The notes under the pieces were generated by a model. The model saw only the letters and a list, made by a program, of their open reading frames with translations. It did no database searches and was not told the origin of the DNA. Shown one piece after another: positions 3,147 to 63,613 of a stretch of 64,000 nt of DNA (position 1 is its first letter; each line of letters opens with the position of its first letter). The stretch lies in the NCBI GenBank assembly GCA_034090015.1, contig JAXDTJ010000018.1:41740-105739 (forward strand), in the 5' to 3' direction. The stretch is from Paludibacteraceae bacterium (GTDB taxonomy: Bacteria; Bacteroidota; Bacteroidia; Bacteroidales; Paludibacteraceae). The translations under genes were made by a program, and so were the position numbers.

Positions 3147-5159
3147 GATGATGCCGGCTTGGTAGGCGGCGAGGAGGTGTTGGAGGTTAGTTATCTGCTG
3201 TTGGAGTTCTTTTCCGCGGTCGGTGTCGCGCACACGGATACGGTGGCGGCTGAAGTCCTCGAGCAGGGTGCGGTTGTGGATGTCGCTGCCGGATAGGATA
3301 GCCTGCTCGCGGCTCTCAAACGACTCATGCTCCACGAGTTGGATTCCGTGGCTGTTGTAGATAAGCGTGTAGCCCGCTATGCCCGTCTTCTCTTGGTAGG
3401 GCTTGCTGAATCCGCCGTCTATCACAAACCGCTTGCCCTCGGCGCGGATAGGGGTCTCGCCCTTGATGGTGCGCACGGGGATATGCCCATTGATGATACG
3501 CCCCGTCTCGGGGTCGAGCCCGAACTCGCGCAGTATCTGCTCGCATATATCGCGGCGGTTTGCCAGTTCGTAGTAGGCTCCTTTCTGCTCTTTCCACAGC
3601 GCTTCATCGTCAATGAAATAGCGTTCGAAAGTGGTCATCTTGTCTTTGTTGTAGAGCGGCGAGTGTGCTCCCTGCCAGAGGTAGAGCATATAGTCCAGCG
3701 CGTTGTCTTTCTCGGAGCCCGTACCGTAGTAGGCGGTGCGCACCACTTCGTCTATGCGCTCCATCAGCGCCCGTCCGCGCACCTGTTCGCCGCAGACATC
3801 CACCGTGGTGAACGACCCGTCGGCGTTCAGTGGGATGGCGGCATGGTAGAGCAGGAAGCCGTTGCGGACAAGGAAAAGCGAGCCATGCTGGTAGAGTCGC
3901 TTCAGGTCGCGCTGCATCTTCTCCGACTTGCGGAACGAGCGCGCCAGTTGCACCATCAGTTCCTCCTCCTCCGCGGAGAGCGCGTAGGGGTGCTTCGCAT
4001 TGATGGTAGGCAGGTTGCGGTCGGTGAGCGGGTAGGTGGCACCCTGTATGCGGATGGTGCCCGCGGCGAGGTCAATCTTATCCAGCAGCAAACGGTCGTC
4101 CATCTCCCACTCGGGATGGCGGAGGATGGTCTGTCCCTCCAACTTAAACTGTATGATAGCCATCGCCTTGTGCATCTTCGCCATGAGTTGTGCGGAGCGC
4201 GTCAGGCGCGGGTTGTTCTCGAAGTCTTTCGTCTGGAAGACGGTGCAAGGGTCGTTGCCGTAGGTCTCCATAGCGAAGTTCGCCAGCGGCAGGAGGTTGA
4301 TACCGTAGCCTTCCTCCAGTGTCTCGATGTTCGCGTAACGGATAGACACGCGGAGCACGGTGGCGATGAGGGCGAGGTTGCCCGCCATAGCGCCCATCCA
4401 CTCGATGTCGTGGTTGCCCCACTGGATGTCGTAGTCGCGCACCCACGAGAGTGTGTCCATAATTTGGCTCGCTCCCGGTCCGCGGTCGAAGATGTCGCCC
4501 ACGATATGCAGCGTGTCGATGGTCAGGCTGTGGATGAGATAGGAGATGGCGATTATGAGTTGCTCGGCGCAGCCCACCTCCACAATGGCGTCGATGATAG
4601 CGTTGTAGTAGGCGGTGCGGTCGTGCTCTATGCTCGACTCGTGAAGCAACTCGTCGATGACGTAGGCGTAGTCCTGCGGCAGCAGTTTGCGCACTTTCGA
4701 GCGGCTGTATTTGATGGTAACCGCTCGCGCTACGAGCACCACTTGGTGCAACCGCCTGCGATACCACTCGTCCATCGTGAACGTGCCCATGCCTTCGTCC
4801 AACTCTCTCCCTTGTAGGGAGGGTAGGGGAGCGTCCTCCTCCAAACTCCGGCGTACCAGTTCAATACGCTCCTCGGGGTAGTAGGTGAGGGCGCAGAGGG
4901 CGCGTTTCTCCGTCTCCGAGAGGGTAAGCCCGTAGATGTCGTCCACCTTGCGGCGGATAACGCCCGAAGCGTTCTTGATGATATGCACAAACGCACCGCT
5001 CTCGCCGTGCAGGTCGCTCACGATATGCTCCGTGCCTTTGGGCAGCGAGATGATGGCTTTCAGGTTGATTAGTTCGGTTACAACCGCCTTGCGCGTGGGA
5101 AACTTCTCGCTCAGCAGGCGCAGGTAACGCTCATCGTTTTTCAGTTCTTCCAAACTCAT
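3132..5159 (-). CDS. fbp: fructose-1,6-bisphosphatase class 3
   Basis: N-terminal LINLKAIISLPKGTEHIVSDLHGE, plus GDIFDRGP and WGNHD metallophosphoesterase motifs. The 675-aa size is typical of Fbp/YydE-type FBPase. Confidence 0.9.
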   Translation of the reverse strand: MSLEELKNDERYLRLLSEKFPTRKAVVTELINLKAIISLPKGTEHIVSDLHGESGAFVHIIKNASGVIRRKVDDIYGLTLSETEKRALCALTYYPEERIELVRRSLEEDAPLPSLQGRELDEGMGTFTMDEWYRRRLHQVVLVARAVTIKYSRSKVRKLLPQDYAYVIDELLHESSIEHDRTAYYNAIIDAIVEVGCAEQLIIAISYLIHSLTIDTLHIVGDIFDRGPGASQIMDTLSWVRDYDIQWGNHDIEWMGAMAGNLALIATVLRVSIRYANIETLEEGYGINLLPLANFAMETYGNDPCTVFQTKDFENNPRLTRSAQLMAKMHKAMAIIQFKLEGQTILRHPEWEMDDRLLLDKIDLAAGTIRIQGATYPLTDRNLPTINAKHPYALSAEEEELMVQLARSFRKSEKMQRDLKRLYQHGSLFLVRNGFLLYHAAIPLNADGSFTTVDVCGEQVRGRALMERIDEVVRTAYYGTGSEKDNALDYMLYLWQGAHSPLYNKDKMTTFERYFIDDEALWKEQKGAYYELANRRDICEQILREFGLDPETGRIINGHIPVRTIKGETPIRAEGKRFVIDGGFSKPYQEKTGIAGYTLIYNSHGIQLVEHESFESREQAILSGSDIHNRTLLEDFSRHRIRVRDTDRGKELQQQITNLQHLLAAYQAGIIKEKS
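4799..4837. repeat. GC-rich palindromic element copy inside fbp
   Basis: CCAACTCTCTCCCTTGTAGGGAGGGTAGGGGAGCGTCCT matches 38672-38710 with 3 mismatches. Confidence 0.8.
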
Positions 5160-5176
5160 AATGCAACAATTTTCCG

Positions 5177-5184
5177 CAAAGGTA
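5177..5184 (-). promoter_or_regulatory. Bacteroidota -7 box TACCTTTG for fbp
   Basis: The reverse complement of CAAAGGTA matches TAnnTTTG, 18 nt upstream of the fbp ATG. Confidence 0.45.
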
Positions 5185-5237
5185 CACTTTTTTTACGATA
5201 CATGCAAGAAAAAGACAGAATTTCCGTAAAAGAGCCA

Positions 5238-5277
5238 CAAAAAACAGCATCCGCCTATCATCTCCCGATGACAGGCG
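5238..5277 (-). terminator. terminator of pectate lyase gene
   Basis: On the minus strand: GCCTGTCATC-GGGA-GATGATAGGC, followed by GGATGCTGTTTTTTG. Confidence 0.55.
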
Positions 5278-5326
5278 AACGCCTAACAAACAATCAAACA
5301 ATTATATCTATTTCTATCTCGTTCTT

Positions 5327-9090: not shown

Positions 9091-10221
9091 ATGCCCTCCA
9101 CCTTTGAAACCCTCATAGACCGCCGCGGTAGTGGTGCGCTGAAGACCGACGCCCTTCGGGAACGATTTCCGATGTATCGGAACGAAGACGGCAGGGACGA
9201 CCTGCTGCCGATGTGGGTCGCCGACATGGACTTCGCGACGCCCGACTTCATCCTCGACGCCATCCGCCAACGGCTGGAACACCCCATCTTGGGGTACACC
9301 ATTGAGCCAGAGGACTATCGCCCCGCTATCATCGACTGGGTTCAATCGCACCATGGATGGGAGATTCAGCCCGAGTGGATTTCGTATATCCCGGGCGTGG
9401 TCAAAGGTATCGGCACCGCCCTTAACCTCTTCACCAAGCCCGGCGACAGCGTGGCAATCATGGAGCCCGTCTATCATATCTTCCGGCAGGTGATAGAAGG
9501 CAACGGGAGAAAAGTGGTAGGAGGAAAAGAAGGCTCGCCTGCCGTCTTTCTCCTCTCCAACCCGCACAATCCGATTGGGATATGTTGGTCGCGGGAGTGG
9601 TTGCAGGCGTTGGCGCACTACTGCTACGAGCACCATATCCTCGTCATCAGCGACGAAATACACGCCGACCTCGCCCTCTTCGGGCATAAACATATCCCCT
9701 TTGCCAGCGTCTCGGAAGAGGCGGCGATGAACAGCATCACCTTCATGGCACCCACCAAGACCTTCAACATGGCAGGTATCATCAGCGCGTACAGCATTAT
9801 CCCCAACCCCGACATCCGCGAACGCTACTACTCTTGGCTTGACACCAACGAACTGAGCGAACCGAACATCTTTGCCCCTATCGCCACCATCGCCGCCTAT
9901 CGCAATGGCGAACCATGGCGGCAGGAACTGATAGCCTATATCGAGCAGAACATCCTCTTCGCCGAGCAGTATTTGGCTCAACACCTGCCACAGGTGAAGG
10001 TCGTTCGCCCCGAGGCGTCGTTCCTTGTGTGGCTCGACTGCCGAGCATTAGGGCTGTCGCATGACGCACTGATAGACCTCTTCGTCAACCGCGCCCGACT
10101 CGCCCTCAACGACGGCGAGATGTTCGGACACGGCGGCGAAGGCTTCATGCGCATGAACGTTGGCTGCCCGCGGGCTGTATTGCAGCAAGCTTTAGAGCGA
10201 CTGCGAGATGCCTGCCAATAA
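9091..10221 (+). CDS. MalY/PatB-type cystathionine beta-lyase / aminotransferase class I-II
   Basis: Motifs WVADMDF, SNPHNPIG, APTKTFNMAG (PLP Lys) and the GFMRMNVGCPR tail. It appears to lack ~20 residues between the NGRKV and LLSNPHNP blocks. Confidence 0.78.
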   Translation: MPSTFETLIDRRGSGALKTDALRERFPMYRNEDGRDDLLPMWVADMDFATPDFILDAIRQRLEHPILGYTIEPEDYRPAIIDWVQSHHGWEIQPEWISYIPGVVKGIGTALNLFTKPGDSVAIMEPVYHIFRQVIEGNGRKVVGGKEGSPAVFLLSNPHNPIGICWSREWLQALAHYCYEHHILVISDEIHADLALFGHKHIPFASVSEEAAMNSITFMAPTKTFNMAGIISAYSIIPNPDIRERYYSWLDTNELSEPNIFAPIATIAAYRNGEPWRQELIAYIEQNILFAEQYLAQHLPQVKVVRPEASFLVWLDCRALGLSHDALIDLFVNRARLALNDGEMFGHGGEGFMRMNVGCPRAVLQQALERLRDACQ

Positions 10222-11499: not shown

Positions 11500-11583
11500 A
11501 ATCTTTTTGTCCTTTCTCTTTTGATTTAGGTTACGAGTAACCCTCGCGGGCTACGGGTACGCTCACGCGCACGGGAATAAAAT

Positions 11584-11671
11584 AATTAAGAATTATGAAT
11601 TAAGAATTAAGAGCGGCTTACGCCAACGGGATAACCACTGCCTCTTAATTCATAATTCTTAATTCTTAATT
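11584..11671. repeat. TTAAGAATTATGAA-word hairpin between rpmF and rluB
   Basis: Left arm AATTAAGAATTATGAATTAAGAATTAAGAG, 29-nt GC-rich loop, right arm CTCTTAATTCATAATTCTTAATTCTTAATT. Confidence 0.85.
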
Positions 11672-11683
11672 CTCAACATTCAC

Positions 11684-14189: not shown

Positions 14190-14223
14190 CTTTTTAACGT
14201 ATCATTCTCACTTGCTTTCCTTT

Positions 14224-14348
14224 CAACATATAATTACCGTATAATTAACCATTAATTTTTCTTTGCTGAATTATTAGGAATACATACACGTAGAAATGTC
14301 CTCAATGAAAATAATTAATGAATAATTACACGTTAATTATATGTTAAA
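14224..14348. repeat. ACATATAATTACCGTATAATTAACC-word hairpin
   Basis: The left arm is ~85 % identical over ~50 nt to 56661-56712. The right arm is an imperfect complement (TTAATTATATGTT). Confidence 0.7.
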
Positions 14349-14464
14349 ATGTAAATTGGCAATTACACGTTAAATGTACTACATTACCTATCATACACGT
14401 CAATTAAACGTGAAATGTATCACACCTTGATTATATGTTAGAAGTTGATTTGCACCGATCTCCA

Positions 14465-16330
14465 ATGCGGCTCATCGCATTCTCCCTGCTGTTGCTGTTT
14501 TTCTCTTCGTGTGCCAACCGAGGGATTGGACCGCAGGGAGGACCCAAAGACACTATCCCCCCGCGGATGGTGAAAGAGCAACCGCTGAACCAGTCCGTCA
14601 ACTTCCACGGAAAGAAGATAGAAATCACCTTCAACGAGTATCTGCAACTCGATAACATCCAGCAGAATCTGCTTGTCTCTCCGCCGCAGCAAGTGTCTCC
14701 TATCGTGAAAGCCGTCGGCAAGAAAGTAACCGTGGAGATGCAGGAAGACCTCATCGACTCCACTACCTACACCCTTGACTTCGGCAACGCTATCTGCGAC
14801 TATACAGAGAAGAACCCCTTGCGCGGCTATGTGTTTGCCTTTTCCACAGGCGACCGCATTGACTCTATGGAGGTCTATGGGCGTGTTGCCAATGCCGAGG
14901 ACCTCAACCCCGTCTCGGGACTGATGGTCGGACTGCAAGCCAACCTCCATGATAGCGCTTTCTCCACCCTGCCTTTCACCCGCGTAGCGCGCTCCGACTC
15001 CTTGGGCGAGTTCGGTATTCAGAACCTGCGCAACGGCGTTTACCGTCTTTATGCCCTCCAAGACCAGAGCCGAGACTTCCTATACCAGCCCGGCGAGGGA
15101 CTGGCGTTCGCCGACTCACTCGTCATACCCGAATACGAGACAGAAATCGTCTTCGACACAATATGGAAAGAACTCGCCGATACCATCGATTCCCTCGCGT
15201 CGGTGCCACAAATCGACACCATCCTGACTATCCAAAACACCTATGTAGGCCCCGCGGACTTGCTGCTCTGGTTCTTCAAGGAAGACAAGCAACGCCACTA
15301 TTTCCAGCGTGTGTACCGCGATGAGCCGCATATCATCAAGTTGCAGTTCTCCGCGCCGCAAGACAGCCTCCCCGCTCTGCGCGCCTTGCCGCCCTCTGCC
15401 ATGGACTCCACGCGCGCCGACAGCCTGTGGACGGACCCGTGGGCATACACCCTCCTCCAAGCCAACCCCACGCGCGACACCCTCGTCTATTGGCTCACCG
15501 ACTCCATCGCCATCCGCCAAGACACCATCTATCTGGAGATGACTTACCTCAAGTCCGACTCCCTATATAACCTCGTGCCGCAGATCGATACCGTCTCCGC
15601 CATCTACCGTGCACCGCGCATGACCCAGAAAGCCAAAGAGGCGCAGGAGAAGAAAGCCCGCGAGCGCAAACTCGATCTCAAGAGCAATGCGAAAGACAAG
15701 TTCGAAGTGTACGACACGCTATGCGTCGTCTCTGCTTTCCCAATCGACTCTATCTACACCGACAGCATTCGCCTCTACGAGAAGCAAGACACCCTGCTCA
15801 TAGACAAGCCCTTCACGCTCTGCCAAAAGGATGTGATGAGTTTCCAAATCATCGCCCCCTTGCAGCAAGGTAAGCAGTATGAGTTGCACCTCGACTCTGC
15901 TGCTGTGCGCGACATCTATGGCGTGGCGAGCGACAAGAAGAAGTTCACGCTCAAACTGAAGACCGCCGAAGACTACTCCACTTTGCTCATCCGCCTGCCG
16001 GACTACGACCCGCGTATCCGCTTGCAGTTGCTCAGCGAGAAAGACCAGCCTGTGCGCGAGTTGCCTGCCCGCGAGGAGGGGACGAAGTTCGAGTACCTCG
16101 CTCCCAAGACCTATTACCTGCGCCTCTATTTCGACTTGAACGGCGACGGCAGGTGGACGACGGGCGACTGGGCGACTAAGCGACAACCCGAGCCGGTCTA
16201 TTATTTCCCTGCTAAACTCAGCCTGCGCGCCAACTGGGACTTCGAGGAGCGTTTCGACTACCTCGCCCGTCCCCAACTGGAAGCCAAGCCCCGCGAACTC
16301 CGCAAAGACGCCACTGCTACGAAGAAATAA
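14465..16330 (+). CDS. Ig-like domain lipoprotein, function unknown
   Basis: Lipoprotein signal MRLIAFSLLLLFFSSC from the ATG at 14465. The N-terminal DTIPP...ITFNEYL pattern is Big_5/SbsA-Ig-like. The rest is unassigned. Confidence 0.6.
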   Translation: MRLIAFSLLLLFFSSCANRGIGPQGGPKDTIPPRMVKEQPLNQSVNFHGKKIEITFNEYLQLDNIQQNLLVSPPQQVSPIVKAVGKKVTVEMQEDLIDSTTYTLDFGNAICDYTEKNPLRGYVFAFSTGDRIDSMEVYGRVANAEDLNPVSGLMVGLQANLHDSAFSTLPFTRVARSDSLGEFGIQNLRNGVYRLYALQDQSRDFLYQPGEGLAFADSLVIPEYETEIVFDTIWKELADTIDSLASVPQIDTILTIQNTYVGPADLLLWFFKEDKQRHYFQRVYRDEPHIIKLQFSAPQDSLPALRALPPSAMDSTRADSLWTDPWAYTLLQANPTRDTLVYWLTDSIAIRQDTIYLEMTYLKSDSLYNLVPQIDTVSAIYRAPRMTQKAKEAQEKKARERKLDLKSNAKDKFEVYDTLCVVSAFPIDSIYTDSIRLYEKQDTLLIDKPFTLCQKDVMSFQIIAPLQQGKQYELHLDSAAVRDIYGVASDKKKFTLKLKTAEDYSTLLIRLPDYDPRIRLQLLSEKDQPVRELPAREEGTKFEYLAPKTYYLRLYFDLNGDGRWTTGDWATKRQPEPVYYFPAKLSLRANWDFEERFDYLARPQLEAKPRELRKDATATKK

Positions 16331-17640: not shown

Positions 17641-17880
17641 GCGACTGTCAGACCGCTGTCCGACTGATTTACTGGGGACGCGGGCGGCTCGCCCGCGGGC
17701 CCGTCGGGCCCGAACAGCGGGTGTGGGCCATGTGATATCCTCCACGGCTTGCGCCTTGCCCGGGGGCGAGACGCCCGCGTCCCCAGTAAATCAGTCGTTC
17801 AGCGCAGCGGTCGGACAATGAAATGGTCCCGATAAATCGGGATGCAAGCATCTGACAGCGAAGCGGTCAGAAACATCTGT
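17641..17880. repeat. composite element: CAGACCGC-word palindrome with nested GC-rich MITE-like insert
   Basis: Perfect 25-bp inverted repeat GACTGATTTACTGGGGACGCGGGCG (17662-17686 / 17772-17796), flanked by GACCGC and GCGGTC words. Confidence 0.8.
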
Positions 17881-19090: not shown

Positions 19091-19524
19091 AAAAACTATG
19101 TTTCATTGCGGCTACCGTAGTAGCCATGGTGCTGGGAATGACTGGCTGTTTCACAACGGAAGTATCTGATGTAAACATCTATTGCCGAGTGAGTTCCAAT
19201 GCGTCCTCCAGCACTACCAAGCCTGTAACGCCGGGACTCGACGACAGTGAGTTGAAAAGCATTTTCAAAAAACACATGCTGACTTTGGGTGAGCCTTTTG
19301 GTGATGATGGTATCATTATCCGCCGCCAAAACAACGAGAAGAATGTGAAGCAAGCCATCCTCGAAGCGGCGCAGGAAGCCGATGCCGAGGTGAAAGAGAA
19401 GTACGGCAACCCCGTTACCGTAAAGGAGAACTACAAAAGCCTCAAAATGTCGGTCTATTACGACTTCGCCGATAACCCCGAAGTAAAAGTGGTAACCTAT
19501 ATCTACAAAGAAGAAACAGAATAA
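19087..19524 (+). CDS. small lipoprotein, unknown function
   Basis: MKKLCFIAATVVAMVLGMTGC lipobox. An ATGA overlap with the symporter stop suggests translational coupling. Confidence 0.6.
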   Translation: MKKLCFIAATVVAMVLGMTGCFTTEVSDVNIYCRVSSNASSSTTKPVTPGLDDSELKSIFKKHMLTLGEPFGDDGIIIRRQNNEKNVKQAILEAAQEADAEVKEKYGNPVTVKENYKSLKMSVYYDFADNPEVKVVTYIYKEETE

Positions 19525-19535: not shown

Positions 19536-19692
19536 CGACCGCAGACGCTAAAAGACCTTCTATCGACTGCAAGACCGCGCTTTGCACTGTAAGACTGATA
19601 TACAATTAAATACTGAATAAGTCGGACAGTGCACTGTCGTTCAGCGATAGCGGTCGGATAGTGCAACGGTCGTTCAGCGATAGCGGTCGTAA
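19536..19692. repeat. ~155-bp CAGACCGC-word palindrome after lipoprotein gene
   Basis: GACCGC words on the left, GCGGTC words on the right, centre GACTGATATAC...CTGAATAAGTC. Confidence 0.8.
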
Positions 19693-19705
19693 ACCAAAAT
19701 CAACC

Positions 19706-22023: not shown

Positions 22024-22034
22024 TAATAATCAAT

Positions 22035-46379: not shown

Positions 46380-49300
46380 TGAAAAAGGTATTTATTGCAC
46401 TATGTCTTCTATGCCTTTATGTAGTTGCATGGGGACAGATTGGTGGCGACTACGATCCCGAGAGTCCTTCCGACCCCGGCACACCGGTGAAGACATACGC
46501 GCTGACGCTCAATGCCACTCCCTCCAACGGCGGTAGTTTCAACACTACTGCAGTCCGTCTGGAAAGCGGAGAAACATACACGATACGAGCATATCCCAAC
46601 ACTGACTATAGGTTCATAGCATGGTTGTGCGAGGGGGATACGCTGTCGAAATCAACAGGCTACACCTACACTATGCCGGCGCACGATGTAAGAATTACCG
46701 GCGTGTTTGAGTATCATCCTGTCTCACCCTCAGACCCGCAACAGCCCGATACCACACGAAAATATCAGTTATTCATAAGCGCCAGTCCCGCGAATGGCGG
46801 TAGTTTCAATATCAGCAACGCCAAAGTGGCAGAAGGCAGTCATAACCAATTGCAGGCGTATTCCAATACAGACTTTGTGTTCAAACATTGGATAATGGGT
46901 GATTCCGTACTATCCACAGCCCAAAGTCTCGATTTCGTGATGCCGAAGCATGATGTACGGTTGGCGGGGGTATTTGAATACAATCCCGGTAACCCGGGAG
47001 ATCCCAATACCAATCCGTGGAATGCAGCAACGGGGGAAGTGATTATAGATGATTTTGTCCCGGGCTATCTACGCAACGCCATCTCTTCCGCTACTGGCAA
47101 CAACAGCAGTGCGGTGCTATCCATTATGGTGGTGGGTATCATGAATAGTTATGATTTTGAAGCCTTTAGCCGCTATAGCAACTGCGCGAACTTGGACTTA
47201 AGTCGTGTGTCGGGCATCACGACGGTACCTTCAAACGCGTTCTCAGCTTCTAACTTCAACCGTGTGGTACTGCCGGCTACCATTGAGTCGTTGGGTTACC
47301 GCTCTTTTGCCAATTGCGCCAACCTCACAAGCATTGTGCTGTATGCTATGACTCCGCCTACGCTCAACACAGACGTATTCAGCGGTGTCTCCGATGGGTT
47401 GCTTGTATATGTGCCGGCAGCGGCGATCCCGCAGTATCAAAATGAAACAGCATGGAGCGGCTTCACCCTATTGCCTATACAAGAAGATATTCTCAATCTG
47501 GAGGTTTCGTTACCGGAAGATGCCGACATTGCCGATTTCACCAATATGTGGTTGGAACTCACCAATACGAAGAACGGTCAGCGGATACATTACGTGATGA
47601 CAGATCGACGCTCCTACACCTTTGCCAACATCATCCGAAATACCACATGGAATGTTACCCTTCGAAACGAAAGGGGGGATGTCTTCGGACAAATACTCAA
47701 TGTGCAGGCACAAGATGAGGATATCAGTGTTTCGTTTACCTCATTATTGAAGCCGCAAAACCTGTCGTTGCGGGTGCTTACTCCCGACAGCGTGGATATT
47801 ACGGAGCAAGTCCAAGTGGTATGGACGGATAGCAAGGGCAATTATCTGGCACAAGCCCGTTCGCTGGTAGGTTTGCCGACGGGATATAGTGCTACCTACA
47901 CGGTTTCTCTGCCGCAACGTCTTGCCATGGTGTATGCTACGCCGCCTTCGGCTACCTGCGTCTTGACTGATGAGAGCAATGAGGTATTTTGTCGGCTATG
48001 CGCCATTCCAAATGTGCATATCTCGGGAACGGTTACCGATGCTTCAACGGGGCTGCCTATGTGCAATGCCACGGTGAGTGCATCGCAAACTTTCGCGGGC
48101 AAGTATAGCAAGACGTTAGGGACGCAAACGGATGCTAAGGGTGTTTACACGCTGGATATAGCCAATGTCCCCACGTCGTTATCGGTTTCCGCATCCAACT
48201 ATGTCAGCCAATCGTGCCGATGCGACTCACTGCTGTCGGGGCAGGATACCGTTGCTATACCCGTTTTTGCGCTACGAACAATCTCGGGTGCTACTATCGC
48301 ACTCGGATTTACCTACACCGATTTAGATGGCAACAGCCAAAACTGGTATCGCGACTACAACAATATAGACTACTCTATCTTCAATCTCACTACCGGAAAA
48401 GCAATTGACCGCTACACGCTGCAGTATCCCCAGATAGTGATTACGGAAGAGGTTGCCGATGGAGACCTGTTGCGCCTGACTGTCACGAGCAGAACCGGCT
48501 CTTTCATGCCGGTTAGTGTGGTGGATACTCTTGCCGACCAAAAAGCAACTGCCACGTTTGATATAGTGGCGTTGGGACGCATCGAATCGTCCTTTGCTTC
48601 TTCCAAAAACTCTACCGTAGCGGGCATTCTGTACGACAGCAACGGGAAATGGATGAATACATACGAATATACCTCCGGCAAGTTGTCGGTCAGCAATCTT
48701 CCCGATGGGCGTTATATCTTGGTAAGCATGGGCAGTAGCCGATTCTTCAATACGATTTATGATTTGGCGAAACTGCCACAAACAGGGCTGGTAAAGGGAG
48801 TGGATTACGTGGAGGACACAGCTGTGGTACGTAGCGGGGAGATAACCACGATTGCAATTAGCGAAGTGCCGACATTGGACGAAAGCAAACTATACTACAC
48901 AGGGGACAAAACCCAGTTCTCTGTGAACAAACCCAGCATTGTGGTGGGCAACTATCTCACCCTCTCGGGTACGATTGATTTCAAGCCGACCTATTCCCAA
49001 AGTGTCAGCAATGTACAGATGATAATAGACCTGCCCGAATCCTGTGAGTTTGTCAGCAACTCTGTGATGATCGGTACGAGTATCGGCAACTATACACTTA
49101 ATGGAAGTCAACTCACCATTCCGCTGATGCACTATACGGATCGGGTGCGTTTCTGCGTTATCCCCACCGAGGGAGGCGACTGTGCGCCGACGGCTTTTGT
49201 ACAGTTTGATCTACAGGGAACATCTATTATGCAACCCATTGGTTCGGCACACGTATCGGTGCAAGATTTGTCTGTTTCCGTTCCTTCTACGGTTGCCAAT

Positions 49301-52300
49301 CCCAGCATTCCGGTAAGCGGAACGGCGGTAGGCGTTTGCGATATCGAGATATTCGATGGCAATGTGTTAATAGGGCAAACCAAGTCATTAGCCAATGGTA
49401 CATGGGCAACCACCTATGAACTGTCTGATGCTTCAAATTTGTCCGTACATGCTATTCATGCTAAGGTGACAACTCAGACAGGAGTTCAATTGATCTCCGA
49501 AAGTAAAAATTGCGTTTATGATATGAACGCCATTGAGTTGATAAAAGTTACTATGTATCATATGAATCCTGAAAAGAATATGCAGACAGCTGTGTATAAT
49601 TTTCAAAATCCTTCTGTCACCCCCAATAAGTGGACAGTATATTACCCAAATAAAGCATTTACATATACAATAGAGTTCACCAACAATTCGCCGACCAAAG
49701 TTTCAAATGTGGTTTTATATGTTCATACTGCCGATAATGAAAAATTACCATTTGCAGCCACATACAACTCAGAGAAAGATTTTTGGTATGTTAATTGCAA
49801 TTTAGGGAATAAATCGGATCAGCACTACCCGATTAATGTGTCTGTCAGTTATACAGCTATTACAGAATTAGACTCTATGGCTACTCTTTCAATTTTTGAG
49901 GAAACTATAAAAAAACAAGACGATTATAATATAGAAATCACAAATGTTTCCGCCGATGAAGATTATTACTATACAGACTATATACATAATGGTTCCAACG
50001 TGGGATTAATTAGCAACTTTTCTACAATTGATACATTACCATGTAGCATTACGCCAATGGTAGATACGGTATTCGACAATTTTAGCATTTATTCAGACAT
50101 TGATTATGTTTCAAATACACTAAACGTATATATTCCAAAACTATCATTGACATATCTTTCAGACATAACAGACACGATTTTAATACAATATCTTGAATGG
50201 GCAGATGAGATTTGTACCTCCAACTTTTTGCGCTTCGCAATCAAAGTAGAAAACCGAAGTACATCTACAAACAACATTAGATTCCGTGCTCCCCTTCAAA
50301 ACTATTTGAGACGCTCACTCTACTTTACAGAACAGATTCTAGGAGCATATGATTCGTACCTAATGGAGAGAGAGGTTAGGGAACGTCTTGAACAGTTAGC
50401 AGATTTGTCAAATAGATTGGATAAGTTGGATTGTATGGACGAAAGCATAAAGGACGACATACGAGATAATATTAATAGATTATTTGAACAATACTTTGAT
50501 ATTAAAGAAACTTCCAACTTAATGCAGGATATGGATAATGAGTTTACTTCTCCGCTATATGCTATAAATTTTGCAGGTGGTTGGCTGGAATTTGCAGCTG
50601 AAATAGGATTTGCAACCCGAAGAAGACAAATATCAAACTTTATCGCAGTATTTGAGAATGCCTGTCCGCCTCCTTTTGAAGGTAATGATGGCGGAGATTA
50701 TACGCCTTACAATCCTGACGATGAAGTACAAATTGACCCCTCCGGCTATGTATATGAAGGGGTGTCGTCCAATCGGTTGGAAGGCGTAACTGCCACTATT
50801 TACTACAAAGAGATGGTGGAAGATATGTATGGTGATTTGCACGAGAACATTGTGAAATGGGATGCAGAAGCGTATGCACAGGAAAATCCGCTCTTTACGG
50901 ATGAGAACGGTTTGTATGCTTGGGATGTACCACAGGGACTATGGCAAGTGAAGTTTGAGAAACAAGGATATGAGACCACCCACTCCGATTGGCTTCCTGT
51001 ACCTCCACCGCAATTAGACGTGAATGTCGCTATGAAGCAGAACGTGCAACCTATGGTGAGAAAAGCCGGAGCTTATGAGGATGCTGTAGAGGTGGAGTTT
51101 GACAAGTATATGCTGCCGGAACAGTTGAACACCGACAATATCATCGTGATGCAAGGCGACAGCATGGTGGCGGGTACCATTCAATTGCTGGACGAGGAAG
51201 TAAGTTATGCGCAAAGCGATATCTCGTATGCATCCAAAGTGCGTTTTCAAGCCGCCGCTCCTTTCTCAGAGCCGATCGTTACGCTTATTGTGAGCAATCG
51301 GGTAAAGAGTTACGCGGGGGTTCGCATGCAAGACAACTACTCACAAACATTCGCTGTAGAGCAGGAAATCAAACAAATCCTCTGCGACTCTGTTAAGAAA
51401 GTGGGGTACTGCAAATCCACTACGCTTAGCGTTCAGGTATTGCCCGCAACAGCGGCGGCAAGAAAAGTGCTGAGGGCGCAATCCTCGTCAGACATGATGG
51501 TCAGCTTGCAAACGACGGAAGCGACTATCGACAACAACGGTCGGGCGGTGTTTACTCTCTCCGGCAATCTACCCGGTACTGCCGCTATCTTATTCGACAT
51601 TGAGGGTACGGATAAAACGGCGCAGACGATGGTCAATGTCGTTCCCGTTGCACAATTGATTCCTACCATCACTGTGGTTTCTGCCGATACGCTGCGGGGT
51701 ACGGTGCATATCGACCAAAAGGTGAATGAGGATAGCATTGCCGTCATCTCTGCTACACCGCTGTTCGGTTACCATTTCACACACTGGAACGATGGCAATA
51801 CCGATAATCCACGTACTATCAAACTGGCGGGCGACAGCACGCTGGTTGCCTCTTTTGACTTGACACGTTTCGGTTTGTGCGGCGATGCACTCTATTGGGA
51901 GTACAGCGACTCGGTAGTGATGGTTACCGGCGCAGGCGAGATGTATCATTTCACCGCCACCACCATGCCATGGCTGCTTCTGCGCGACAGTATCACCACT
52001 ATATCCATCAGCAGGGAGGCAACAACGATTGGAGAAGCCGCATTCTATGGCAGCAACAAGGTGGATACCATCTTCAGTTATGCGCTTGTACCGCCGATAT
52101 GTGGGGATTCCTGTTTCTATCTTGTGCCGCAGGAGGCACAGGTATTCGTACCGAATGGCTCATTGGAAGCGTACAAAGCCGCGGAAGGTTGGAGGTACTT
52201 CTTCCATATCAGCGAAATGGAGAAAATGCCGGAGACAGAGTTGGAACAAACAGAATTTTACCAATGCATCACAAAGTACGTCCGCAATGGAGTGCTGTAT

Positions 52301-52351
52301 ATCCGGAAGGGAAATAGAACCTATAATCTATTGGGAAATGAAGTTAGGTAA
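46379..52351 (+). CDS. giant (1990 aa) surface protein: Listeria-Bacteroides-type repeats, BspA-LRR blocks, carboxypeptidase-regulatory-like domains
   Basis: The start overlaps the upstream stop (TAATG). Signal peptide MKKVFIALCLLCLYVVAWGQ. Two N-terminal GGSFN...F.HW...V.GVFEY repeats and a third, divergent copy near the C-terminus. LRR blocks at both ends. Confidence 0.8.
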   Translation: MKKVFIALCLLCLYVVAWGQIGGDYDPESPSDPGTPVKTYALTLNATPSNGGSFNTTAVRLESGETYTIRAYPNTDYRFIAWLCEGDTLSKSTGYTYTMPAHDVRITGVFEYHPVSPSDPQQPDTTRKYQLFISASPANGGSFNISNAKVAEGSHNQLQAYSNTDFVFKHWIMGDSVLSTAQSLDFVMPKHDVRLAGVFEYNPGNPGDPNTNPWNAATGEVIIDDFVPGYLRNAISSATGNNSSAVLSIMVVGIMNSYDFEAFSRYSNCANLDLSRVSGITTVPSNAFSASNFNRVVLPATIESLGYRSFANCANLTSIVLYAMTPPTLNTDVFSGVSDGLLVYVPAAAIPQYQNETAWSGFTLLPIQEDILNLEVSLPEDADIADFTNMWLELTNTKNGQRIHYVMTDRRSYTFANIIRNTTWNVTLRNERGDVFGQILNVQAQDEDISVSFTSLLKPQNLSLRVLTPDSVDITEQVQVVWTDSKGNYLAQARSLVGLPTGYSATYTVSLPQRLAMVYATPPSATCVLTDESNEVFCRLCAIPNVHISGTVTDASTGLPMCNATVSASQTFAGKYSKTLGTQTDAKGVYTLDIANVPTSLSVSASNYVSQSCRCDSLLSGQDTVAIPVFALRTISGATIALGFTYTDLDGNSQNWYRDYNNIDYSIFNLTTGKAIDRYTLQYPQIVITEEVADGDLLRLTVTSRTGSFMPVSVVDTLADQKATATFDIVALGRIESSFASSKNSTVAGILYDSNGKWMNTYEYTSGKLSVSNLPDGRYILVSMGSSRFFNTIYDLAKLPQTGLVKGVDYVEDTAVVRSGEITTIAISEVPTLDESKLYYTGDKTQFSVNKPSIVVGNYLTLSGTIDFKPTYSQSVSNVQMIIDLPESCEFVSNSVMIGTSIGNYTLNGSQLTIPLMHYTDRVRFCVIPTEGGDCAPTAFVQFDLQGTSIMQPIGSAHVSVQDLSVSVPSTVANPSIPVSGTAVGVCDIEIFDGNVLIGQTKSLANGTWATTYELSDASNLSVHAIHAKVTTQTGVQLISESKNCVYDMNAIELIKVTMYHMNPEKNMQTAVYNFQNPSVTPNKWTVYYPNKAFTYTIEFTNNSPTKVSNVVLYVHTADNEKLPFAATYNSEKDFWYVNCNLGNKSDQHYPINVSVSYTAITELDSMATLSIFEETIKKQDDYNIEITNVSADEDYYYTDYIHNGSNVGLISNFSTIDTLPCSITPMVDTVFDNFSIYSDIDYVSNTLNVYIPKLSLTYLSDITDTILIQYLEWADEICTSNFLRFAIKVENRSTSTNNIRFRAPLQNYLRRSLYFTEQILGAYDSYLMEREVRERLEQLADLSNRLDKLDCMDESIKDDIRDNINRLFEQYFDIKETSNLMQDMDNEFTSPLYAINFAGGWLEFAAEIGFATRRRQISNFIAVFENACPPPFEGNDGGDYTPYNPDDEVQIDPSGYVYEGVSSNRLEGVTATIYYKEMVEDMYGDLHENIVKWDAEAYAQENPLFTDENGLYAWDVPQGLWQVKFEKQGYETTHSDWLPVPPPQLDVNVAMKQNVQPMVRKAGAYEDAVEVEFDKYMLPEQLNTDNIIVMQGDSMVAGTIQLLDEEVSYAQSDISYASKVRFQAAAPFSEPIVTLIVSNRVKSYAGVRMQDNYSQTFAVEQEIKQILCDSVKKVGYCKSTTLSVQVLPATAAARKVLRAQSSSDMMVSLQTTEATIDNNGRAVFTLSGNLPGTAAILFDIEGTDKTAQTMVNVVPVAQLIPTITVVSADTLRGTVHIDQKVNEDSIAVISATPLFGYHFTHWNDGNTDNPRTIKLAGDSTLVASFDLTRFGLCGDALYWEYSDSVVMVTGAGEMYHFTATTMPWLLLRDSITTISISREATTIGEAAFYGSNKVDTIFSYALVPPICGDSCFYLVPQEAQVFVPNGSLEAYKAAEGWRYFFHISEMEKMPETELEQTEFYQCITKYVRNGVLYIRKGNRTYNLLGNEVR

Positions 52352-52377
52352 GCCAAGCGATAACTCATAGAGGCGCG

Positions 52378-52408
52378 GTTCCCGACAAGTCGGGAACTGG
52401 TCGGGAGC
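52378..52408. repeat. TCCCGAC-AA-GTCGGGA hairpin between the 1990-aa and 802-aa genes
   Basis: GTTCCCGACAAGTCGGGAACTGGTCGGGAGC. Confidence 0.75.
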
Positions 52409-52463
52409 CGCACCAAAAGAAATAATGTATCAACAAATTTATTAACCTTTTCATCAAAAAAGT

Positions 52464-54872
52464 ATGAGAAAAAGAGTTTTTTCACTTTTTGTGGCACTGG
52501 GTACCACATTGAGTCTTCTCGCCTACGACTTCCAATCGGGCGACTTGTACTACACAATCACGAGTAGTACGGACCCATTAACTGTCAGCGTGGCAGCCGA
52601 TGCAGGCGGCAGTTATGCCTCGCTGACCACCGTAACCATCCCCGAGACGGTAACCAACAATGATGTAACCTACAGCGTAACGGGTATCGAAACCAACGCG
52701 TTCAGCGGTTGCACGAACCTTACAAGCGTGGTATGGAACGCCAAGAACTGCCAAAGTTGGGGTTCCTACAAAACGGCTCCGTTTCATAGCATTGCCGCAC
52801 AGATAACTTCGTTCACTTTCGGCGAGGGAGTAGAACTCATCCCCTACGCCATCTGTGACGATATGACGGCTCTCACCAACGTAACCTTACCCGAGAGCAC
52901 GAAAATAATCAAGGGCAGTGTTTTCTACGGTTGCACGGGGCTTACATCCATCAGCATCCCAACCAATGTGGATACGATTGGACTGGATGCGTTCAAGAAT
53001 TGCAGCCAACTGACTTCCGTAACATGGAACGCCAAGAACTGCCGCCCAAACTACTACCAAGGGGCTCTTAGCACGCCTTTCTATGCTATTGTGTCGCAGA
53101 TGACTTCGTTCACTTTCGGCGATTCGGTAGAGTGCATCCCTGATGGACTGATGATGGGGATGTCAAATATCTCCGCCATCACCATTCCCCTTCATGTAGA
53201 TTCCATTGGCGGATGTGATGCGTTTAGTGGTTGCAGCAGTTTGAACTCAGTAGTATGGAATGCGAAGCATTGCAAAACAGTCAAAGTACTAAATAGGACG
53301 TATGACTATGAAATAGGCGAATACAAATACTACTATGATAGTCAAAGTCCCTTCTACGGAGCCGCAGAGCAAATTACTTCTTTCACCTTTGGCGATCAAG
53401 TGGAGAGTTTGCCGGATAGGTTATGTGAAGGTATGAAAAATCTTAGTTCTATCTTGCTACCCGATGGTATCACTGCTATCGGAGAGAGAATGTTCTATGA
53501 TTGCTATGCCTTGTCTGCCATCACAATCCCTGAAAGCGTGCAAAGTATAGGAGAGAGTGCCTTTTCTTCTTGTAGAGGGCTAACCTCTATCACCATACCC
53601 AATAGTGTGAAAAGTATTGGAGGGTGGGCATTTAGTGGTTGCTATGGTATCAAAAAGACCAATTTTATAGGTACGCTTAGCGAATGGTGCCAAATAAATA
53701 CCGGAAGTACGCCGGTAGAGTATTCTCACAATTTGTACCTCAACGATGTCTTACTCACCCACGCAGATATACCGGATGGTGTTACAACCATTCATGATGA
53801 TGCTTTTAATGGAGACACCTGTTTGGTTTCCATCACAATTCCCAATAGTGTAACTTATATAGGAAAGGATGCTTTCGATGGTTGCTACAATGTAGAAACC
53901 GTAATGGTCGGTAATGGCGTAGAAACAATAGATGAGTATGCATTCTATGATTGCAGCGCACTGAAGAAATTCGTTTATGAGAGCCCGCTTGCAGCACCTT
54001 TGGATGTGATTTCTTACAAAGCAGACTTAGACACACTGATAGCACCTGCAACAGTACTAAACACTTATTATATGTCACCTTCTACACATGTCCGTTATAT
54101 CAAGATACATAGCGGAGAGATTACTGAACGGGGTTTTGCTGCATTGCTGGGCAGTTACAAGACTCTGGGCACCATAGACCTTGCCGGAGCAAGCAACACC
54201 GGCATGGCAGACAGGACGTTCTACGAGTGCTACAACCTGACGCAACTCAGCCTGCCCGCACAGTTGGAGGCCATTCCTTACAAGATGATAGCCGACTGCT
54301 ACATGCTGCAGTCTATCACCATCCCTGCTACGGTAACCGAAATCGACAACAATGCTTTTGAGAACTGCCGTAGCCTGCAAACGGTAAACTTTGCAGCGAA
54401 CAATGCACTGCAACGCATCGGCAACTGGGCATTCTACAACTGCCATGCTTTGCAGACCATCAGCATACCCGAGGGCGTAACATACGTGGGCGATGGTGCT
54501 TTCTACGGATGCACCTACCTGACCAACATCACGCTGCCGAGCACTATGCTCGCTATGGGGGACAACAGTTTCGCGCTCTGCTCGAAATTGCAGCAGATGA
54601 ATGTGCGTGCCAACATCCCGCCCACTATCGCAAGCAAGACCTTCTACAACGTGCTCCGCACTATACCCGTATATGTTCCTATGGATGCCGTAGCGCAGTA
54701 CAAAGCCGATACCTACTGGCGCGAGTTTAATATCATCGGTAGCGATGCCCCGTCCGATACGGAGAACGTACTCACCGATGCCGCTACACCCACGCGTATT
54801 GTTCGAGACGGGAAAGTGCTTGTCTATAGCAATGGCAAATGGTACGATATGTTAGGAAATATCGTGGAATAA
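52464..54872 (+). CDS. BspA-type leucine-rich-repeat surface protein (802 aa)
   Basis: Signal peptide MRKRVFSLFVALGTTLSLLA. There are over 15 LRR units (IETNAFSGCTNLTSV, IGESAFSSCRGLTSITIPNSV...). Confidence 0.8.
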   Translation: MRKRVFSLFVALGTTLSLLAYDFQSGDLYYTITSSTDPLTVSVAADAGGSYASLTTVTIPETVTNNDVTYSVTGIETNAFSGCTNLTSVVWNAKNCQSWGSYKTAPFHSIAAQITSFTFGEGVELIPYAICDDMTALTNVTLPESTKIIKGSVFYGCTGLTSISIPTNVDTIGLDAFKNCSQLTSVTWNAKNCRPNYYQGALSTPFYAIVSQMTSFTFGDSVECIPDGLMMGMSNISAITIPLHVDSIGGCDAFSGCSSLNSVVWNAKHCKTVKVLNRTYDYEIGEYKYYYDSQSPFYGAAEQITSFTFGDQVESLPDRLCEGMKNLSSILLPDGITAIGERMFYDCYALSAITIPESVQSIGESAFSSCRGLTSITIPNSVKSIGGWAFSGCYGIKKTNFIGTLSEWCQINTGSTPVEYSHNLYLNDVLLTHADIPDGVTTIHDDAFNGDTCLVSITIPNSVTYIGKDAFDGCYNVETVMVGNGVETIDEYAFYDCSALKKFVYESPLAAPLDVISYKADLDTLIAPATVLNTYYMSPSTHVRYIKIHSGEITERGFAALLGSYKTLGTIDLAGASNTGMADRTFYECYNLTQLSLPAQLEAIPYKMIADCYMLQSITIPATVTEIDNNAFENCRSLQTVNFAANNALQRIGNWAFYNCHALQTISIPEGVTYVGDGAFYGCTYLTNITLPSTMLAMGDNSFALCSKLQQMNVRANIPPTIASKTFYNVLRTIPVYVPMDAVAQYKADTYWREFNIIGSDAPSDTENVLTDAATPTRIVRDGKVLVYSNGKWYDMLGNIVE

Positions 54873-56328: not shown

Positions 56329-56334
56329 GATGTT

Positions 56335-56445
56335 GATTAAGAATTAAGAATTATGAATTAAGAGTGCATTTTTGGGTCGTTATCGGTTCGGTATCGTCTC
56401 GTCATCGTCTCACTATTCTCTCGTGAATCACCCACGAATCACCTA
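56335..56445. repeat. three word families in the DUF4301 leader
   Basis: GATTAAGAATTAAGAATTATGAATTAAGAG, TCGT(T/C)ATCG words, and GAATCACC(C/T)A x2. Confidence 0.8.
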
Positions 56446-56620: not shown

Positions 56621-56660
56621 CAACGGAATTTTTGGGCACTTCTTTTTGTGCTGACCTTCT

Positions 56661-56745
56661 TTAACATATAATTATCGTATAATTAACCATTAATTCTTTC
56701 ATTGCGGAATTATACGGGCAATTATATGGCAATTAATGTTTATAA
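56661..56745. repeat. ACATATAATTATCGTATAATTAACC-word element in lipid-kinase leader
   Basis: Homologous to 14224-14275. Confidence 0.75.
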
Positions 56746-58195: not shown

Positions 58196-58203
58196 ATATG
58201 TTA

Positions 58204-58404
58204 GATGAAGGATAAAGGATTAAGGATAAAAGACTTATTACCTTTGTCTCTGAATATTCATAGTTGAAACTATTTCGTCTTTCATCCTGTATCCTTAATC
58301 TTTTATCCAAATAGTGTCTCTAATCCTTTATCCAAATAGAGTCCTTAATCCTTTATCCAATAAACTATTTAGTCTTTAATCCTGTGTCTTTAATCCTTCA
58401 TCCA
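58204..58404. repeat. GGATAAAGGATTAAGG-word hairpin plus tandem tail, overlapping the TPR gene start
   Basis: Left arm GATGAAGGATAAAGGATTAAGGATAAAAGAC, right arm GTCTTTCATCCTGTATCCTTAATC, then 3 more TAATCCTTTATCC units. Confidence 0.85.
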
Positions 58405-62913: not shown

Positions 62914-62934
62914 ACTCAATTCCCCCGCCATCAT

Positions 62935-62959
62935 GGAGGTGCGGTCTCCAGGCCGCACC
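62935..62959. repeat. solo arm of the GGAGGTGCGGTCTCC palindromic element
   Basis: 25 of 25 nt identical to 26900-26924. Confidence 0.85.
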
Positions 62960-62983
62960 ATCGGAGAAAAGGGCGCGGACTAT

Positions 62984-63017
62984 CTCAACACTCAACTCTC
63001 AACCCTCAACTCTAAAC
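62984..63017. repeat. CTCAACT 7-mer array upstream of trmH-family gene
   Basis: CTCAACACTCAACTCTCAACCCTCAACTCTAAAC. Confidence 0.85.
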
Positions 63018-63020
63018 TAC

Positions 63021-63613
63021 ATGCAGAAACTGACCATACAAGAGATGAATCGCCTATCTGCGGAGGCCTTCCGCGAGGCGGAGAAATTGCCGCTGGTGGT
63101 GGTGCTGGATAATGTCCGCAGCCAACATAATGTAGGTGCTGTGTTCCGTACAGCCGATGCGTTCTTGTTGGAGGGCTTGTACCTCTGCGGCATCACGCCG
63201 AAGCCCGACACGCTGAGTACCAACAACGACCTGCACAAGACGGCGCTCGGCGCAGAGCTGACAGTGGCGTGGCAGGCGTTTGCAGAGACGATGGAGGCGG
63301 TGAAGACACTGCAAGCGAGAGGCTATAAGGTCTATGCTGTAGAGCAGGCGCACCACTCCATCACCCTCGAGCAGGCTGCGCAAGAAATCACTGGGGACGC
63401 GGGCGTCTCGCCCGCGGTGGGGCTGTCCCTCCCCGTCTGCACTAACGGCATCGCCATCGTTCTCGGGCATGAGGTCTTCGGTGTGGCGCAGGAAGTGGTG
63501 GATGCTTGCGACGGCTGCATAGAGATTCCGCAGTATGGCACCAAACACTCGCTGAACGTCAGCGTAACAGCAGGCATCGTCATGTATGCTCTCGCCACCG
63601 CCATGCGGGGTTC

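Follow-up and report, generated by a model that had tools for sequence, protein, structure and literature searches.

Rickettsia palindromic elements (RPEs) are reportedly tolerated as extra peptide within proteins, and Ogata and Claverie are said to have found their presence or absence to be lineage-specific. The small dispersed repeats (SDRs) of cyanobacteria, the subject of work by Elhai et al. in 2008, are reportedly mainly intergenic; small palindromic units are said to sit inside tandem heptamer STRR arrays, with their insertion shown by empty orthologous sites and no transposase identified. In-frame palindromic repeats are documented for the RPEs of Rickettsia and also for GTAG/CGTC repetitive extragenic palindromes (REPs) in Opitutus, Thauera, and others (PMC3733652). 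REPs are imperfect palindromes of 20–40 nt and are mostly extragenic; some overlap gene ends or lie inside open reading frames (ORFs), where they encode 20–30 amino acids (Di Nocera, 2013; PMC3733652), and an inverted REP doublet constitutes a REPIN unit (Bertels and Rainey, 2011; PMC3116915). Intergenic heptamer simple sequence repeats (SSRs) are known from Xanthomonas and Nostoc (PMC4692102), and TAACTGA repeats from Beggiatoaceae, Cyanobacteria, and five Bacteroidetes (PMC4679880). We searched the literature for such repeats in gut Paludibacteraceae, and for repeats lying in frame within Bacteroidales genes, and found nothing relevant. Here we analyzed a 64-kb stretch of DNA (hereafter, the window) from a metagenome-assembled genome (MAG) of a Paludibacteraceae bacterium, made up of 5.4 kb of intergenic regions (IGRs) and 58.6 kb of coding sequences (CDS). 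An earlier reading made from the letters alone (the sequence-only reading) had proposed that palindromic spacer repeats sit in frame inside conserved genes of this window. Our analysis suggests, with a probability of roughly 75%, that intergenic mini-repeats entered coding genes as lineage-specific in-frame insertions, by copying.

The genes concerned are dapA (2157–3074), the class III fructose-1,6-bisphosphatase gene fbp (3132–5159, minus strand), a preA-like gene (19661–21289, annotated start at 19706; hereafter preA), a giant ORF of 3356 amino acids (23264–33334), the carboxynorspermidine decarboxylase gene nspC (35312–36553), and a gene for a SpoU/TrmH-family methylase (63021–63620; hereafter, the TrmH-family gene). 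Pfam agreed with the earlier gene calls throughout, with Laminin_G_3 as the sole domain of the giant ORF. We compared all window IGRs with all CDS by blastn at a threshold of at least 35 bits, using 40 codon shuffles as the control. The search returned 14 IGR-CDS matches against a shuffle mean of 0.025, and no shuffle reached 40 bits, which excludes chance. The matches paired particular intergenic elements with four giant-ORF loops and with fbp, preA, the second insert of nspC, and the TrmH-family gene, and all host ORFs were intact. Spacer-type sequence within ORFs is therefore real.

The fbp segment 4799–4837 matched IGR 38672–38710 at 36 of 39 positions, and nspC 36204–36272 matched IGR 38563–38634 at 79% over 72 nt; both reference copies lie between speA and the carboxynorspermidine synthase gene, and 38664–38710 folds with a z-score of −2.3. 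The TrmH-family segment 63390–63417 agreed at 27 of 28 positions with both 17671–17698 and 17760–17787, the two arms of an intergenic doublet of the ACTGGGGACGCGGGCG unit that forms a 151-nt palindrome (17654–17804; dG −113 kcal/mol, z −10.4). In preA, 20002–20020 was identical to IGR 52377–52395 (19/19), the core of a match of ~27 nt to a TCCCGAC-AA-GTCGGGA hairpin pair (52377–52406), of which an extra copy lies at 33959–33974. For the giant ORF, 26896–26925 matched a single intergenic GGAGGTGCGGTC...CCGCACC unit (62931–62960; z −2.5) at 29 of 30 positions; 30208–30239 and 32681–32702 matched AATTAAG arrays at 11583–11672, a hairpin whose arms are such arrays (z −8.4), and at 56333–56364, with 88–100% identity; and 32862–32943 matched 58201–58282 in reverse orientation, at 80% over 82 nt, within a hairpin with GATAAAG/AAGGATT heptamer arms (58201–58310; z −4.7). 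The dapA segment 2168–2197 resembled the CTCAAC arrays at 62983–63018 and 63646–63733 at the heptamer level only (86–89% over 28–29 nt).

The sequence-only reading had claimed a spacer copy of 85–100% identity in each case and had called the elements palindromic, and both statements held in part. Spacer copies exist for most segments, but not for the first insert of nspC, for a block of CAACGCAAA nonamers in the giant ORF (32743–32784), which has no intergenic copy in the window, or for a GTGGCCA block in the same ORF (33065–33100), which matches the window elsewhere only over 14 nt at the 3′ end of ligA (1617–1635); moreover, two real matches reach only 79–80% (nspC insert 2 and giant 32862–32943). 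Folding as a hairpin was clear for giant 26897–26974 (dG −54.9 kcal/mol, z −10.3), preA (z −2.9), and the TrmH-family segment (z −2.3), and weak for nspC insert 2 (z −1.7), but no hairpin fold was found for the fbp segment (z 0), giant 30200–30285, or giant 32862–32943. Roughly half of the CDS segments still fold as hairpins, and several of the elements called palindromic are tandem arrays or half-elements.

Outside the genes, tandem repeats of 7–11 nt occur in nearly every window IGR, often as inverted arrays that fold into long hairpins, and other IGRs have GC-rich palindromes; fold z-scores of these intergenic elements range from −4.7 to −10.4. Three types recur: GC-rich REP-like hairpin units of 25–40 nt, which stand alone, pair up as inverted doublets, or nest; hairpins of ~100 nt with tandem 7–8-mers for arms; and free tandem arrays with units of 7–16 nt. 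A motif census of the window gave 94 matches, 68 of them intergenic (8.4% of bases) and 26 in CDS, so that repeat-motif density per base is ~28 times lower in CDS than in IGRs. Arrays of 7–8-mers number 27 in the window, or 4.2 per 10 kb, comparable values being 3.7 in close relatives, 5.3 in the closer relatives found through the TrmH-family gene (for the most part contigs from rumen metagenomes), and 0.42 across 1.1 Mb from other loci of Bacteroidales, a density some 10 times below that of the window. This lineage thus carries many families of very small dispersed repeats, mainly intergenic, and dense 7–8-mer arrays are a lineage trait. Scanned against Rfam (E up to 0.1), the entire window yielded only one spurious microRNA match on an AT-rich hairpin, and a tRNA scan of the window yielded none.

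The fbp insert (EDAPLPSLQGRELDEGMG; ~18 residues) occupies 4785–4838 on the minus strand. Its core, 4799–4837, is a decayed copy of a CCCTCCCT-loop-AGGGAGGG hairpin, and the peptide spanning the insert is SLEEDAPLPSLQGR. The EDAPLPSLQGRELDEGMG segment is missing in 22 of 22 diverse class III enzymes (representatives of 50% clusters, 34–62% identity) and kept in all relatives of at least 92% identity, more than 100 in number, where it evolves faster than its flanks. Its persistence spans a dS of ~0.75, which fits the decayed state of the hairpin. A PDB sequence search with fbp gave no match. In the AlphaFold model (mean predicted local distance difference test score, pLDDT, 90.5), residues 111–121 are the sole internal segment with a pLDDT below 50, and they lie inside a modeled coil (108–128) between two helices, at the position of the insert. 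Gene order around fbp is not conserved in relatives of 93–95% identity, which makes those relatives uninformative for dapA.

In preA, ~37 extra residues (19949–20059, plus strand) fall in the linker between the N-terminal iron–sulfur domain and the DHO_dh barrel. They derive from an 87-nt nested palindrome (19969–20055) with a TCCCGAC-nn-GTCGGGA inner hairpin, which is present only in the window lineage and one 95%-identical relative; in orthologues of ~70% identity the linker is short and lacks it. In the relative L081 (relatives are designated by L numbers), 94% identical at the nucleotide level, the inner hairpin is shorter by 21 nt, a duplication that affects both arms. The model of the protein (mean pLDDT 66.4) leaves residues 88–119 below 50, predicted as unstructured between well-modeled flanks. 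An identical protein is encoded in at least four SRA assemblies made independently, which argues against an assembly artefact; the contigs with exact copies of this preA are only 2–4 kb long.

The dapA case is a 30-nt CTCAACn heptamer array (2164–2193, plus strand) just 3′ of the ATG, in frame, which adds ~10 N-terminal residues. L173, 92% identical over 3 kb, carries the empty allele (ATGACTA|AACCTTT) with the same ATG, and the 30 nt are therefore a true in-frame insertion. Alleles of 305/306 and 295/296 amino acids both occur within the cluster of at least 90% identity, and the array adjoins a pre-existing AAC that completes a repeat unit. A start-codon artefact, with TTG at 2199 or 2211 as start, was rejected, as the short allele has the same ATG before conserved sequence. 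L173 also holds in-frame cases beyond those listed by the sequence-only reading: an 18-nt CCAATG-type insertion in a DUF6913 gene (L173 ~9905–9925, window ~2062) and a copy of the 58201-family hairpin (83–88% identical) inside an ORF of 443 amino acids (L173 16187–16258).

In the TrmH-family gene, 17 residues (63387–63437, plus strand; insert-spanning peptide QEITGDAGVSPAVGLSLPV) correspond to one ACTGGGGAC-GCGGGCG-nnn-CGCCCGC unit. The protein has ~19 residues more than the solved TrmH structure 1v2x and 24 more than the baseline orthologues of 175 amino acids, which have no insert. In rumen relatives, the same loop holds in-frame arrays of AAATCAC (four units), AAATTTC (four), or CACCAAT (seven), or the CAGCGAAGCGGTC family, and in L119 a TCCCGAGGGA hairpin is nested within an AAATTCA array; the relatives with other families in the loop are among L100–L134.

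Two inserts of different quality occur in nspC. The first (35637–35671, plus strand) is a CCAAGAA heptamer array of 3.9 units in a variable loop, 4–7 residues beyond most of 80 orthologues. Its in-window match is only 14 nt, within the giant ORF, and L002 and L175 have a different array, GAGCCAA, at the site. It is a weak case: a lineage-specific heptamer array without a spacer copy in the window. The second (36205–36312, plus strand; ~36 residues, insert-spanning peptide GARPTPPLPEATPLR) has an outer stem CCCTCCCCTCCCT...AGGGAGGGAG, an inner hairpin CACCCCAC...GTGGGG, and an additional 24-nt tandem duplication. It is missing from the solved structure 36gy (~80% identical), and across 80 Bacteroidales orthologues this loop ranges from ~6 to ~45 residues. 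The window, L002, and L175 have three different nested-hairpin contents with one common left junction, the inner hairpins being nested in the loops of outer CTCCCCCT...AGGGGGAG stems. The contigs of both relatives stop within the insert (L002 at 2739–2805, L175 at 19140–19211); it appears that such repeats break up short-read assemblies within genes. Upstream of nspC, L175 has an entirely different IGR. When a genome collection was scanned with nspC, the matches were mainly to distant Bacteroidales, with a single close relative, which was truncated.

The giant ORF belongs to a LamG family with a type IX secretion system (T9SS) sorting domain in some members, and its full-length orthologues (3200–3360 amino acids) range from 94% down to ~25% identity, which rules out a read-through of two genes. 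Orthologues at 45% identity are without all of the claimed segments, and within the 90% cluster the protein varies from 3265 to 3356 amino acids, with indels only in the claimed loops. Loop 1 (26876–26974, plus strand) contains a 78-nt near-perfect palindrome of two inverted GGAGGTGCGGTC...CCGCACC units, a REPIN-like doublet; among genomes of 95–97% nucleotide identity it takes at least three states: L175 has a short and empty-like one, L087 and L174 carry a nonamer-like insert, and the window has the palindrome. Loop 2 (30206–30284, plus strand) consists of AATTAAG/AATTATG heptamers followed by GAGCACTCC nonamers and is read as INYELRIKNYEHSEHSDNSEHSDYS; it differs from L087 by indels of 6 and 36 nt. 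In the frame in which the CDS copies are read, intergenic AATTAAG copies have TAA stops where the CDS has TAT.

Loop 3a (32673–32790, plus strand) combines an AATTAAG array, a nested 30-nt insertion (32698–32727), and the CAACGCAAA nonamers. The 30-nt piece is flanked by TAAGA direct repeats and is missing in L087, as are 18 nt of the nonamers. In L174 and L175 the loop-3a composite occurs at a second site, ~31460 in window coordinates, which shares with loop 3a the flanks ATTAAyTATGA and GCGCAGCCTTACACC (11 and 15 nt), apparently through ectopic gene conversion between the two sites. Loop 3b (32845–32945, plus strand) is a copy of the loop and right arm of the 58201–58310 hairpin; its left arm has diverged into CAAGAAC heptamers and it has no hairpin fold now (z +0.4), while L089 has kept both arms and has another palindrome nested in the loop. 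Loop 3c (33065–33107, plus strand) is an in-frame GTGGCCA/GTGGTCA heptamer array (Tandem Repeats Finder period 7, 5.1 copies) that is length-polymorphic within the 90% cluster; L087 has a related CCACTGn array, intergenic. Further, the giant loops of L088 and L089 hold families that are intergenic in the window, among them the TCCCGAC hairpin, the GGAGGTGCGGTC unit, GATAAAGGATT heptamers, ATTGTCAA octamers, the CTCCCCCGCCCC palindrome, and CACCGGGGACGCC.

Two other observations concern this gene. A patch of ~250 nt (29048–29258) is only ~65% identical to L087, without indels, in a gene otherwise 97% identical, and looks like recombination or gene conversion or diversifying selection. In L087, a gene of the bAvd/23S_rRNA_IVP family (14622–14987) lies ~2.3 kb downstream of the giant gene, with no counterpart in the window; bAvd is an accessory protein type of diversity-generating retroelements.

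The comparison with L087 (96.8% nucleotide identity over 9.9 kb) shows how such segments change. Besides a start-codon difference, all nine indels fell at repeat sites (26878–26937, 30215–30282, 32698–32760, and 32931), and all nine were multiples of three (chance probability ~5 × 10⁻⁵). Slippage or duplication produced the difference of 18 nt of nonamers and an 18-nt duplication relative to L087, and likewise the 24-nt duplication in nspC. In addition, L087 has an extra intergenic repeat block of ~440 bp (~720–1160) at window 22009–22037, and IGR repeats are as fluid as CDS segments. Once in place, segments change fast, by slippage, tandem duplication, nested insertion, arm expansion, and whole-cassette replacement. 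The L087 block itself contains two direct copies of a ~110-bp element with internal inverted repeats, resembling a miniature inverted-repeat transposable element (MITE), together with the CCACTGn array and a copy of a TAATTA-rich family (window 14193–14374 and 56660–56713).

All surviving CDS copies are stop-free and have a length that is a multiple of three. Purifying selection acts on the carrier genes: for fbp, preA, nspC, and the giant ORF, dN/dS against relatives is 0.04–0.28. Structure models predict a disordered loop for the fbp insert and a disordered linker for that of preA, and the inserts of the other genes lie at positions that are length-variable among orthologues. Orthologue comparison, the check that the sequence-only reading had itself suggested, favors lineage-specific insertion for every gene, and the AlphaFold models placed the fbp and preA inserts in surroundings of the loop type that it had envisaged. 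Neither outcome that it had named as contrary turned up: distant orthologues do not have the same segments, and the genes do not look like pseudogenes, given their dN/dS and frame-keeping indels. As to its comparison with RPEs, presence both in IGRs and in frame within ORFs stands, but part of the spread appears to be slippage or gene conversion.

We favor copying from intergenic mini-repeats as the origin of these insertions. The first arrival at a site would be a copy-and-paste event of a non-autonomous mini-element, which might be catalyzed by a trans-acting enzyme encoded elsewhere or proceed by microhomology- or hairpin-guided template switching; selection would then purge copies that break frame or fold, and such purging would explain the ~28-fold lower density in CDS. 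Several points weigh against this origin. Each family has a low copy number, with 2–13 motif matches within the 64 kb. No transposase, RAYT, or reverse transcriptase is present among the window ORFs, unassigned ones included. We found no consistent target-site duplication or terminal motif, the junctions having direct repeats of 3–5 nt, and GTAG heads are present in some families only. Slippage or recombination explains several of the events among close relatives as well as transposition does. That the inserts are read as extra low-complexity peptide is something we infer from conservation of frame and stops, and for both the TrmH-family and the nspC protein, the exact window sequence is in one public record only. 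A bolder version, which we consider unlikely, would give the gut and rumen Paludibacteraceae clade a dedicated copy-and-paste system targeting hairpin loops or arrays, perhaps a single-stranded DNA Y1 transposase or a reverse transcriptase, that writes cassettes into permissive loops as insertion ‘ports’ and supplies surface-protein variation, with heptamer tracts possibly serving as frameshift switches. A more serious alternative, though still a doubtful one, is spread by homologous or ectopic gene conversion with inter-strain recombination on existing repeats, in which no transposition machinery takes part. It would account for the loop-3a composite between its common flanks at ~31460, for the alternative whole cassettes, and differing flanks, seen at loops 1 and 3 of the giant ORF when relatives of at least 90% identity are compared, and for new pieces inside existing arrays; however, it leaves unexplained the first arrivals at repeat-free sites (fbp, the TrmH-family gene, and the preA linker) and the single REP-like units without flanking homology.

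It is very unlikely, in our view, that the repeats are immobile and that one mutational bias, by slippage on 7–9-nt units or fold-back synthesis, makes tracts independently in IGRs and loops. Such a bias would agree with the whole-unit copy-number changes between close relatives (18 nt of nonamers and the 18-nt duplication), with the over-representation of heptamer SSRs in several bacterial groups, for which slippage has been proposed (PMC4692102; PMC4679880), and with the AAC that the dapA array adjoins and that completes its unit. It does not predict the long non-repetitive matches that include loops (82 nt at 80%, 72 nt at 79%, 39 nt at 92%, and 28–30 nt at 96%), none of which is expected in shuffles, nor the same complex units in different genes of different relatives. 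Quite unlikely, in our judgment, is a selected role for the variable loops in contingency or diversification, with heptamers as frameshift switches and cassettes that vary a surface protein against phage or host recognition. The LamG family of the giant ORF, with its T9SS sorting domain in some members, and the multi-allelic giant loops within the 90% cluster would suit this idea, and because three does not divide seven, adding or dropping a single unit changes the reading frame. However, cytosolic housekeeping enzymes (fbp, nspC, dapA, preA, and the TrmH-family gene) carry these elements too, no full-length allele seen is out of frame, the indels among relatives are all multiples of three, and the tracts are short, at 3–7 units. 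Scarcely credible, finally, is an artefact, be it repeat-driven misassembly of MAGs, erroneous gene calls, or pseudogenes: although relatives' contigs often break at repeats, as those of L002 and L175 do within the nspC insert, and N-terminal cases can be start-codon miscalls (PMC3733652), identical preA in at least four independent assemblies, the fbp insert in more than 100 relatives, intact ORFs with dN/dS of 0.04–0.28, and a short dapA allele on the same ATG all speak against it.

Repeats of the same kinds mark other parts of the window. In a co-directional polyamine run (agmatinase, nspC, speA, carboxynorspermidine synthase, and GT2), each spacer has its own AT-rich hairpin of 85–100 nt with arms of tandem 7–8-mers (35222–35308, 36559–36647, 39969–40060, and 41022–41120; z −5.5 to −5.7 for the three that were folded), and the elements 35222–35324 and 41010–41113 are copies at 87% identity. 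Several gene ends also run into repeats. An ACCACTn heptamer array, conserved in L173, covers the stop of ligA and its last four codons (1617–1635); the GT2 3′ end (41010–41028) overlaps a ATTTGACA hairpin arm; and the TrmH-family stop codon lies inside ATTATGA heptamers (63614–63634). A direct repeat of ~137 nt (77–82% identical), built on a GTCGTTCAGCGnnAGCGGTC family of 16–17-mers, is present upstream of preA (19552–19688) and downstream of a small lipoprotein-like gene (21512–21829) at 21839–22006, where it gives the acyltransferase ORF 21660–23129 a spurious N-terminal extension of 110 amino acids; this gene is called at 364–389 amino acids in relatives. Three large BspA-type leucine-rich-repeat genes (1216, 1990, and 802 amino acids) fill 42729–54872, a block with a GC content of 41–48%, as against 51–59% elsewhere, and almost no matches to the repeat families, which would fit a recent horizontal acquisition; a spacer near these genes (52377–52406) already has the TCCCGAC hairpin pair.

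If copying into genes is indeed what happened, RPE-like remodeling of proteins by selfish mini-repeats would extend to the Bacteroidota, in an abundant free-living gut and rumen lineage, and would be no quirk of reduced intracellular genomes. The loops of fbp, nspC, dapA, preA, and the TrmH-family protein would then amount to a natural tolerance test, accepting 10–40 unrelated residues. With the graded series of relatives, insertion, nesting, slippage, and gene conversion could be dated and the mobilizing mechanism sought. The repeats also carry two practical warnings: they break short-read assemblies within genes, as in the nspC contigs of two relatives, and they split orthologues at 90% thresholds, the nspC and TrmH-family proteins of the window each being the sole member of its cluster.

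Compared with the known systems, the repeats of this window behave like several of them and cannot be assigned to any single one, given the inconsistent GTAG head, the lack of a RAYT in the window, and a phylum different from that of Rickettsia. They resemble RPEs (RPE-1 to RPE-10) in being intergenic and also in frame in conserved ORFs, in being missing from orthologues, and in that about half of them fold. Unlike RPEs, the set also includes tandem 7–9-mer arrays and half-elements, its loops have been recolonized by different families in close relatives, and its host is a free-living gut anaerobe and not an obligate intracellular bacterium. With a host in the Bacteroidota, sequence homology to RPEs is not expected, and the likeness is one of working like an RPE, not of sequence membership. 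To REPs and REPINs the likeness lies in units of 20–40 nt that are single or form inverted doublets (GGAGGTGCGGTC..CCGCACC and ACTGGGGACGCGGGCG..CGCCCGC; 26897–26974 and 17654–17804). In contrast to REPs, there is no consistent GTAG/CGTC head, GTAG being present in the CCCTTGTAGGGAGGG and GTGTAGGGAAGCCTC families but not in GGAGGTGCGG, ACTGGGGAC, or TCCCGAC; no RAYT is among the window ORFs; and many low-copy families share 64 kb, whereas REPs come as one or a few high-copy families.

Like the cyanobacterial SDRs and STRRs, the heptamer arrays of the window are abundant and mostly intergenic, and nesting of units is shown by empty sites (32698–32727 compared with L087), as well as by the L119 hairpin nested in an array; the difference is the prominent in-frame occupancy of conserved enzymes. 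With the reported heptamer SSRs they have in common that they are over-represented, mostly intergenic, near gene ends, sometimes in inverted pairs, and length-variable, and that stops in the reading frame restrict their placement in genes. Those reports describe one dominant unit per genome with few intragenic copies, whereas the window has dozens of units, which form the arms of long hairpins and sit in frame inside enzymes. In MITEs, the terminal inverted repeats match an insertion sequence and the target-site duplication has a fixed length; in the window, hairpin elements of ~100 nt recur (35222–35324 with 41010–41113, and 58201–58310 with 32862–32943), and junction direct repeats vary between 3 and 5 nt. 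Unlike SSR phase-variation loci, the full-length alleles of relatives include no out-of-frame variants. Since in-frame insertion of REPs has been described outside Rickettsia (PMC3733652), the novelty claimed here is the phylum, not the phenomenon. What is unusual in this lineage is the presence of many co-resident families, the in-frame heptamer arrays in housekeeping enzymes, and the recolonization of the same loops.

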